Positions 5,879 through 6,254 of a stretch of DNA of 45,959 nt are shown here, in pieces. The notes under the pieces were generated by a model. It did no database searches and had not been told where the DNA came from. It saw only the letters and a list, made by a program, of their open reading frames with translations. Source of the stretch: a virus; the IMG/VR virus record IMGVR_UViG_3300036893_000027; one strand, 5' to 3'. How positions within the stretch are numbered: position 1 is the first letter of the stretch; every line of letters begins with the position of its first letter. The position numbers were made by a program, and so were the translations under genes.

Positions 5879-5888
5879 CAATTAAACC

Positions 5889-5908
5889 ATTGGTATAATG
5901 TGCCAATA
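5889..5908 (+). promoter_or_regulatory. promoter-like motif ATTGGTATAATGTGCCAATA (extended -10 TGGTATAAT)
   Basis: Perfect TGnTATAAT; the motif is repeated at 5991-6010. Confidence 0.45.
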
Positions 5909-5990
5909 GCAGGACTGTATTCGTTTCATTTGTGGCAGGAGCTATTCTATCTAAGCGGCTCTGGAGGCTACAATAGAATACAGTCCTGAT

Positions 5991-6010
5991 ATTGGCATAA
6001 TGTGCCAATA
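5991..6010 (+). promoter_or_regulatory. second copy of promoter-like motif (TGGCATAAT)
   Basis: Near-identical 20-mer, 102 bp downstream of the first copy. Confidence 0.4.
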
Positions 6011-6110
6011 AACAGACTGTGTACAGGGTTATTACAAGCAGGTTGGTGTAAGGCATCACGGTACTGGAGAACACCAACTGAAAGCTTGTGATAGTACACA
6101 GTCTGTATTA

Positions 6111-6183
6111 GGGCCCGTAGCTCAATGGTTAGAGCAGCGGACTCATAATCCGTTGGTTCTAGGTTCGAGTCCTAGCGGGCCCA
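6111..6183 (+). tRNA. tRNA-Met/Ile2 (anticodon CAU), CCA encoded at 6184-6186
   Basis: Cloverleaf: acceptor GGGCCCG/CGGGCCC, anticodon loop CTCATAA (CAT at 6144-6146), T-loop GGTTCGAGTCC. Confidence 0.85.
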
Positions 6184-6254
6184 CCAATTTCTGTAAGTTC
6201 TGTGTTGCTGTGGCACAGATGTAGTGTAGTGAATAACAGTGAAAGGAGGGCCAA

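Follow-up and report, generated by a model that had tools for sequence, protein, structure and literature searches.

The phage sequence IMGVR_UViG_3300036893_000027 (IMG/VR; the window analysed here is the whole stretch of 45,959 bp) holds, in a gap of 230 bases between a pilin-like gene and a tRNA gene with a CAU anticodon, a tandem duplication in which each unit consists of a promoter-like palindrome and a long rod-shaped hairpin. A preliminary description had placed two tandem modules of this kind, in sense orientation, directly 5' of the tRNA, and they are indeed there; its interpretation of them holds in part. The element is real and beyond chance, and bears marks of selection for base pairing: the RNA fold of 5880-6190 has a free energy of -138.8 kcal/mol and a z-score of -11.95, and the single hairpins fold with z-scores of -8.4 (hairpin 1) and -6.0 (hairpin 2). 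The explanation favoured here, with about an even chance of being right, is that these are promoter-headed, paralogous sense-strand modules that would share transcripts with the tRNA(CAU) and act there as structured leaders or as processing RNAs. The components of the locus are as follows.

5889 to 5908, plus strand: motif copy 1, ATTGGTATAATGTGCCAATA, with TG at 5891-5892 and TATAAT at 5894-5899; predicted transcription start at about A5905/A5906.
5906 to 5992, plus strand: module 1 hairpin (M1), about 87 nt, predicted from the RNA fold and a covariance model made from module 2; helices P1 5910-5922/5976-5988 (13 bp), P2 5930-5936/5967-5973 and P3 5938-5943/5957-5962.
5889 to 6009, plus strand: extended hairpin 1, 121 nt, in which copy 1 is predicted to pair with copy 2, giving 19 pairs outside P1.
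5991 to 6010, plus strand: motif copy 2, ATTGGCATAATGTGCCAATA, with TG at 5993-5994 and CATAAT at 5996-6001; predicted transcription start at about A6008.
6008 to 6110, plus strand: module 2 hairpin (M2), about 103 nt, the basis of covariance model R1; helices P1 6012-6024/6094-6106 (13 bp), P2 6030-6039/6084-6093 (10 bp) and P3 6041-6049/6071-6079 (9 bp).
6111 to 6186, plus strand: complete tRNA gene with a CAU anticodon (ARAGORN, Met; Rfam, 77.1 bits).

The two modules fold independently into one rod, in which P1 is followed by a 5' internal loop, P2, a bulged A, P3 and an apical loop; over both modules, P1 has 13 bp, P2 7-10 bp, P3 5-9 bp and the apical loop 13-21 nt. The inverted repeat 5910-5922/5976-5988 of M1 lies exactly where it had been reported, the apical loop spans 5944-5956, and a GGAG at 5963-5966 is unpaired in the fold. 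The repeat reported for M2 at 6013-6024/6094-6105 is also present, its full extent being a perfect 13 bp at 6012-6024/6094-6106. In M2, small loops separate the helices, A6040 is bulged, and the apical loop (6050-6070) carries CUGGAGA, with an unpaired GGAG at 6065-6068. The second hairpin does not, as had been thought, abut the tRNA: its helix closes at 6106 and the first nucleotide of the tRNA is 6111, with a 5-nt spacer, TATTA (a 3' tail of 4 nt at 6107-6110, or UAUUA when U6106 is included), and pairing out to 6110 is possible only by a weak A-U extension with a bulge. The sequence that follows hairpin 1 is ATATTGG, and that following hairpin 2 is TATTAGG.

That the two hairpins are paralogues is apparent from a covariance model (R1) built from module 2 alone and searched, with filters off, against both strands of 77 kb. 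R1 finds module 1 end to end (28.8 bits, E = 4.5e-5), the next unrelated match reaching 18.8 bits, and detects no third hairpin of the module type in the 77 kb. In the R1-guided alignment, 10 of the 28 comparable pairs have changed on both sides with pairing kept, 2 have changed on one side by way of a wobble pair, and 1-2 are broken. An alignment made by MAFFT from sequence only, which has 66 invariant columns, already shows two substitutions in P1 (A-U to G-C and U-A to A-U) and a paired single-base deletion, and because they are visible there, these changes are independent of structure fitting.

The pairing also has a direction. The 77 predicted pairs include eight G·U wobbles and no A·C, and the eight wobbles would be C·A mismatches if the other strand were folded. 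The minimum free energy as RNA is -59.2 kcal/mol on the plus strand versus -41.0 on the minus strand for hairpin 1; for hairpin 2 the values are -43.2 and -38.1, and the R1 score of module 1 is 28.8 versus 15.5 bits; DNA energy parameters point to the same strand, more weakly. All substantial open reading frames (ORFs) of the window lie on the plus strand. Because pair types, strand-asymmetric folds, R1 scores and gene orientation agree, the models favour a sense-strand RNA structure.

Assemblies from other samples supply some natural variation. One contig (L008) is identical to the window across the modules, and another (L009) differs from it at 3 sites in 1261 bp, among them a T>C change at 5945 and a 5-nt deletion of 5951-5955. 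Both changes are confined to the hairpin 1 apical loop and leave the stems intact, so this loop appears to tolerate change, and the stems do not. Small-protein genes were considered for the same stretch and rejected. The 29-codon GTG ORFs at 5900-5989 and 6002-6091 begin at the same position of their respective motif copies (MPI...), share only MPI and 2 scattered residues, and the 5-nt deletion of L009 frameshifts the ORF at 5900-5989; coding is excluded because the peptides are unrelated and a natural deletion frameshifts the first of them. A 3-codon ATG mini-ORF (MCQ-stop) found in both copies was judged spurious.

Each rod is preceded by a copy of the 20-mer ATTGGYATAATGTGCCAATA. The two copies are 102 bp apart, at 5889-5908 and 5991-6010, and each contains, as previously described, a perfect or near-perfect extended -10 (TGGTATAAT at 5891-5899, 9 of 9 positions; TGGCATAAT at 5993-6001, 8 of 9), so that the sigma-70 extended -10 element TGnTATAAT is found at the locus. 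Sizeable non-coding gaps are few, and the perfect element at 5891-5899 occupies one of them. Across the window, TGNTATAAT occurs at 9 sites versus 2.5 expected, a number reached in 0 of 100 shuffles, whereas generic -35/-10 matches are not enriched (45 versus 41). Of the six plus-strand TGNTATAAT sites, five precede an ORF start, or the hairpins of the modules, by 30-80 nt; those ahead of ORF starts are the following.

20308, plus strand: TGNTATAAT site 30-80 nt ahead of an ORF start.
23536, plus strand: TGNTATAAT site 30-80 nt ahead of an ORF start.
24943, plus strand: TGNTATAAT site 30-80 nt ahead of an ORF start.
27507, plus strand: TGNTATAAT site 30-80 nt ahead of an ORF start.

The occurrences of TGGTATAAT at 23536 and of the variant TGTGATAAT at 21902, both noted earlier, are present, and TGTGATAAT comes within 12 nt after a textbook intrinsic terminator at 21853-21890 (17-bp stem and T6). 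Because TGNTATAAT is enriched when generic -35/-10 matches are not, and because its sites lie upstream of ORFs and one follows a terminator, the extended -10 elements are probably working promoters of this phage. A promoter reading of the two motif copies is plausible. The stretch 21853-21910 is, in its own right, a clear terminator-promoter boundary, and a second strong canonical terminator with a stem and U tract is found at 26278-26312.

The motif is more than a -10 element. The sole additional match to the 20-mer is the reverse strand of copy 2, which exposes its self-complementarity: the motif is a 19-nt quasi-palindrome, ATTGGYATA-A-TGTGCCAAT, a feature overlooked in the preliminary description. 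The two copies agree at 19 of 20 positions versus stems that are diverged and compensated, and this higher conservation of the motif fits sequence-specific recognition. As for the expectation that the motif would recur elsewhere in the phage, the -10 core does so, as above, and the full 20-mer does not: no further copy with at most 3 mismatches occurs in the window (chance expectation 0.06), and none is present in 4.3 kb upstream of it (L008) or 10 kb downstream (L130), about 60 kb in total. This absence, which the preliminary description had named as a refutation, shows only that the 20-mer is not a general promoter consensus.

Because the motif is self-complementary, copies 1 and 2 can also pair with each other. 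The longest inverted repeat of the whole window is 5889-5922/5976-6009, with 34-nt arms that are 85% complementary; its mismatches are one A·A and one G·A, and three further positions are G·U as RNA. Extended hairpin 1 is thus predicted to contain a near-continuous duplex of about 32 bp (9+10+13 bp, with two 1x1 mismatches between), which requires that transcription enter upstream of 5889. Each motif copy can alternatively form a local 8-bp hairpin, and the long-range duplex is about 10 kcal/mol more stable (-59.2 kcal/mol versus local hairpins of -6.6 for copy 1 and -8.6 for copy 2 plus a core of -34.2). Both predicted hairpins offer the 20 bp or more (about two turns) of near-continuous double-stranded RNA that characterize an RNase III substrate.

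A model for the locus would begin with a tandem duplication that gave rise to two paralogous sense-strand RNA modules, each comprising the 19-nt quasi-palindrome with its extended -10 and, 4-5 nt past the predicted start, a three-helix rod. These modules and the tRNA(CAU) that follows would share transcripts, which would arise from the modules' own promoters (starts at about 5905-5906 and about 6008), by read-through from the pilin-like gene, or both. A co-transcribed precursor cut by RNase P, as the preliminary description proposed, would be the natural reading, in which we infer both the promoters and the processing. Cleavage by RNase P at 6110/6111, the 5' end of the tRNA, would free module 2 as a nearly blunt 103-nt rod. 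In read-through transcripts, the pairing of the motif copies would instead create the duplex of about 32 bp, an RNase III-type substrate; its cleavage would detach the tRNA precursor from the pilin mRNA, whose 3' end would then be protected by a hairpin. The sequences, their pairing, the pair-preserving changes between the paralogues, the strand asymmetry and the enriched and suitably placed extended -10 elements are observations; where transcription begins, where RNase P and RNase III cut and what the element does, be it as a processing or stability element or as a stable small RNA, are predictions.

Several points weigh against this explanation. A two-hexamer scan of 4500-7500 finds no -35 hexamer at 16-18 bp from the -10 of either copy; a -35 is optional for the sigma-70 extended -10 class. 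A promoter alone does not account for the palindromic flanks; these might bind a dimeric regulator as an operator, form a local 8-bp RNA hairpin, or provide for long-range pairing. Firing of the copy-1 promoter precludes the outer 19-bp stem, so the promoter and extended-hairpin readings concern different transcripts. The covariation comes from one paralogue pair in an alignment that is partly structure-fitted, the family has only two members in one genome, nearly identical across three samples, and template switching within DNA palindromes can copy mutations from one arm to the other and so mimic compensation. The plus strand is G-rich, with a GC skew of about +0.18, which by itself favours G·T over A·C; this tempers the argument from strand asymmetry and does not remove it. 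Finally, the other four tRNA genes of the window have no comparable upstream modules.

The conserved motif also suits a different and rather unlikely explanation, in which the palindromes (TTGGYA-N7-TGCCAA, centred on the -10) are DNA sites bound by a dimeric phage or host regulator of two tandem tRNA promoters. The pairing between copies would then be a by-product of the palindromes, and the hairpins could still be RNA elements as well. A motif that is both directly repeated and self-complementary is needed by a dimeric DNA-binding protein and not by an RNA stem, and the position of the -10 at the palindrome centre, the drift of the adjoining stems beside 19 of 20 retained motif positions, and the 102-bp spacing, about 10 helical turns, are all in keeping with such sites. 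However, the palindrome is perfect as RNA and, with its three T·G positions, not so as DNA; the half-site pattern gives 4 loose matches in the window versus 1.2 expected, none of them convincing, and the 27 neighbouring proteins scanned contain no helix-turn-helix or other DNA-binding domain.

It is unlikely, again by a wider margin of doubt, that the modules are trans-acting stable small RNAs with promoters of their own and 3' ends made by tRNA-processing enzymes, for example double-stranded RNA decoys or sponges for host or phage targets. Each does have its own promoter-like element, with a hairpin that starts 4-5 nt past the predicted start, and rod-like, almost blunt hairpins should resist exonucleases; module 1, however, lacks an evident signal for 3'-end formation, and its apical loop is polymorphic (the 5-nt deletion). 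An unpaired GGAG is kept in both modules; there is no conserved single-stranded seed beyond CUGGAG. GGAG is the target of T4 RegB (PMC3014915), and a tblastn search with T4 RegB gives nothing (E>=5) in about 60 kb of this phage, whose genome exceeds 100 kb. The phage invests heavily in RNA biology, with a polynucleotide kinase (Pnk), two RNA ligases and five tRNAs, yet no homologues of the modules were found in other phages in the collections scanned. The bolder form of this idea, a shade more doubtful still, is a new class of phage small RNA genes, each with an extended -10 promoter of its own and with ends set by tRNA-processing enzymes (RNase P at the 5' end of the tRNA), in which stable, dsRNA-like rods of about 90-105 nt would accumulate and act in trans as decoys or sponges for RNase III or for RNA-sensing or tRNA-targeting defence. 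By analogy, such a class would be the bacterial-virus counterpart of the herpesvirus TMERs, and it would suit a phage that has NAD salvage genes as well as Pnk, two RNA ligases and five tRNAs.

Known small RNAs beside tRNAs offer limited parallels. The small RNAs of the T4 tRNA cluster, rnaC (species 1) and rnaD (species 2), whose biological roles are still unknown (PMC3014915), were the comparison first suggested for the hairpins. Like them, the modules would be tandem small non-tRNA RNAs beside phage tRNA genes, on the same strand and presumably freed by tRNA-processing enzymes. The analogy nevertheless fails on position, architecture and sequence: rnaC and rnaD sit 3' of tRNA-Arg and the modules 5' of a tRNA; the modules are rods, whereas the fold of rnaC branches and includes a T arm like that of a tRNA, and rnaD has hardly any structure (z = -0.8); neither T4 RNA has a promoter of its own ahead of it; and R1 finds no match to rnaC or rnaD in the T4 region, where its best score is 12 bits, elsewhere. 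The TMERs of murine gammaherpesvirus 68 combine a tRNA-like element and one or two stem-loops in one primary transcript, separated by tRNA-processing enzymes (PMC4337559). They differ in being transcribed by eukaryotic RNA polymerase III, in the reverse order of their parts (the tRNA-like element 5' and the stem-loops 3'), in an RNase Z cut and in being Dicer substrates, and they have no sequence relation to the modules.

Functional analogues of the favoured arrangement, promoter-headed modules co-transcribed with a tRNA, are found in better-known systems. The early RNase III hairpins of T7 with the tandem promoters A1-A3, and the P1-P2 promoters of the E. coli rrn operons, likewise place strong tandem promoters about 100-125 bp apart ahead of a highly expressed RNA. 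In T7-type intercistronic hairpins, an asymmetric internal loop separates a lower from an upper stem; RNase III cuts these hairpins, and they make the 3' end of the upstream mRNA more stable. In T7 and rrn, however, the promoters are not embedded in hairpins, the hairpins are about 50-60 nt long, and T7 has many sites per genome versus two at one locus here. The put elements of phage HK022 are also two paralogous, promoter-proximal structured RNAs of one phage, with pair-preserving differences between the copies. They differ in that put is an element of about 70 nt with two stem-loops that lies well downstream of PL and PR and acts on RNA polymerase, whereas each module here is a single three-helix rod before a tRNA.

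A purely DNA-level role for the palindromes, as a miniature inverted-repeat transposable element (MITE), a recombination or integration site by the tRNA, or a replication-origin cruciform, is very unlikely. Terminal inverted repeats of 12-13 bp do bound each module, which lies beside a tRNA gene, a common integration target, and the Logan assemblies of three samples (L003, L008 and L009) all end inside the tRNA, at window positions 6128-6147. These breaks coincide, however, with a 28-nt tRNA core, TAGAGCAGCGGACTCATAATCCGTTGGT, that is common to more than 100 viral contigs, and look like a de Bruijn graph artefact; a genome terminus or att site was rejected as their cause. The tRNA is complete (77 bits), there is no target-site duplication (the flanks are inverted, not direct), no other copy occurs in the window, L008, L130 or the collections scanned, the GC skew does not change at the locus, and the strand-asymmetric pairing argues for RNA. 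An integron attC site was rejected as well, with no RYYYAAC/GTTRRRY boundaries visible. No sign of a retron msr/msd was seen: the flanks are the Flp-like pilin and small ORFs without Pfam matches, and the precomputed Pfam lists of L003, L008 and L130 contain no RVT. Least probable of all is that the hairpins are attenuators, an option offered in the preliminary description, or terminators, which would hold back transcripts that run from the pilin-like gene towards the tRNA and the genes downstream. Very stable hairpins do come right after a stop codon, but neither hairpin is followed by a U tract, a terminator scan finds no site in 5880-6190, and the same phage has canonical terminators with stem and U tract at the two places given above.

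Relatives of the element were sought in several collections. Among the 4227 models of Rfam 15, only tRNA reaches its gathering threshold; at E<=10, the best non-tRNA overlaps in 5700-6400 are with microRNA-precursor models, at 17-20 bits versus thresholds of 104-110. A Y RNA was rejected, YrlA scoring 14.4 bits versus a threshold of 69 and matching through the tRNA part. Exact-pattern scans for the motif, and for the motif with the stem, give 2 matches in viral contigs, both in unrelated coding sequence, and none in metagenome and genome contigs. A blastn search of 5600-6500 against 50,697 phage records retrieves the tRNA only. The closest phages by DNA ligase are at most 60% identical, and the syntenic region of three of these ligase relatives (L005-L007) has no tRNA and no related hairpin; what looked like an intergenic hairpin in L005 is part of an uncalled ORF. 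With the tRNA anticodon arm as anchor, 120 viral loci were collected, and a blastn-short search with the module over the 300 nt that precede the tRNA in each of them finds nothing. The element was found only in one phage lineage in these searches.

Hairpins of another kind do occur in this position. In 3 of the 120 viral loci, on unrelated viral contigs with large tRNA arrays, a rod-like hairpin of 110-130 nt takes up the spacer between a preceding tRNA and a near-identical tRNA(CAU), immediately 5' of the latter.

L109, 7958 to 8078: tRNA(CAU) spacer hairpin.
L038, 9963 to 10071, minus strand: tRNA(CAU) spacer hairpin.
L083, 1596 to 1727: tRNA(CAU) spacer hairpin.

These three share a closing stem, (GT)ACCATAT...ATATGGT(AC), whose 5' arm reaches into the CCA end of the tRNA before it, and have neither the extended -10 motif nor an Rfam match. 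Homology to the modules was rejected (R1 gives at best 9.7 bits, E = 2.4, and MAFFT with RNAalifold no common structure). The three hairpins are related to each other, and are analogues, not demonstrably homologues, of the modules. Other spacers of those viral tRNA arrays contain AT-rich long hairpins (TATTGAAA...TTTCAATA), and L038 carries, at 8707-9166 on the minus strand, a GOLLD RNA (225 bits) with an embedded tRNA inside its viral tRNA array.

The tRNA next to the modules had been labelled tRNA-Met. Its best E. coli match among 5400 genomes, 80.5% over the full length, is annotated as tRNA-Ile, and the gene is probably a tRNA-Ile2, with a CAU anticodon modified to read AUA. The fifth tRNA-like gene of the window, at 18539-18614, is detected by Rfam (42.6 bits) and not by ARAGORN; 55 nt separate it from the tRNA-Lys(CTT) before it, and it has the anticodon loop CTTCTAA (TCT), a shortened D arm and a long variable region.

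The surroundings of the locus are those of a large phage, with a parent genome that exceeds 100 kb, and a gene content that includes Pnk, two RNA ligases, NAMPT, an NMNAT/Nudix protein and five tRNA genes. The stop codon of the upstream pilin-like gene is 11 nt from motif copy 1. An identical pilin-like protein is found on two contigs from other samples, where it has the same precomputed Pfam family; the protein, of the type IVb Flp/Fap kind, has a G-x4-EY-type motif, SGQDIIEYALILALIAML. Downstream of the tRNA come small ORFs without a family match and then an ATP-dependent DNA ligase (Pfam). The neighbouring gene and the genes of an RNA-repair and NAD-salvage block at 22232-30138, which resembles a counter-defence toolkit against tRNA-cleaving and NAD-depleting systems, are listed below.

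5651 to 5878, plus strand: upstream gene, encoding a Flp/Fap pilin-like protein of 75 amino acids (Pfam Flp_Fap, E = 2.7e-7).
22232 to 23212: polynucleotide kinase.
25021 to 26229: RNA ligase.
26595 to 27581: cytidylyltransferase/Nudix NMNAT-like protein.
27539 to 28957: NAMPT.
28966 to 30138: Rnl2-like RNA ligase.

Elsewhere in the window, a cluster of AT-rich palindromes and inverted repeats with arms of 25-31 nt occupies 21134-21223, inside or beside the ORF at 21023-21487. A protein of 807 amino acids (40269-42692) has precomputed Pfam matches to Vault_3 (weak) and MVP_shoulder, domains of the major vault protein that are unusual in a phage, and its gene is followed by genes for a single-stranded DNA-binding protein and a peptide deformylase (43829-44536).

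The wider importance of the element is limited because it is confined to one phage lineage and its function is a prediction. If the favoured explanation, of promoter-headed modules co-transcribed with the tRNA(CAU), is true, the locus would show in compact form how a large phage can organise the expression of its tRNAs: with strong tandem promoters set inside the arms of an RNA duplex, transcripts that start internally would differ in fold, and could differ in processing, from those that read through. The few known non-tRNA RNAs associated with phage tRNA genes would also gain a structured family that has no relatives in the databases. The unrelated long hairpins 5' of tRNA(CAU) genes elsewhere hint that spacer hairpins may be a recurrent, and so far unstudied, feature of phage tRNA loci.

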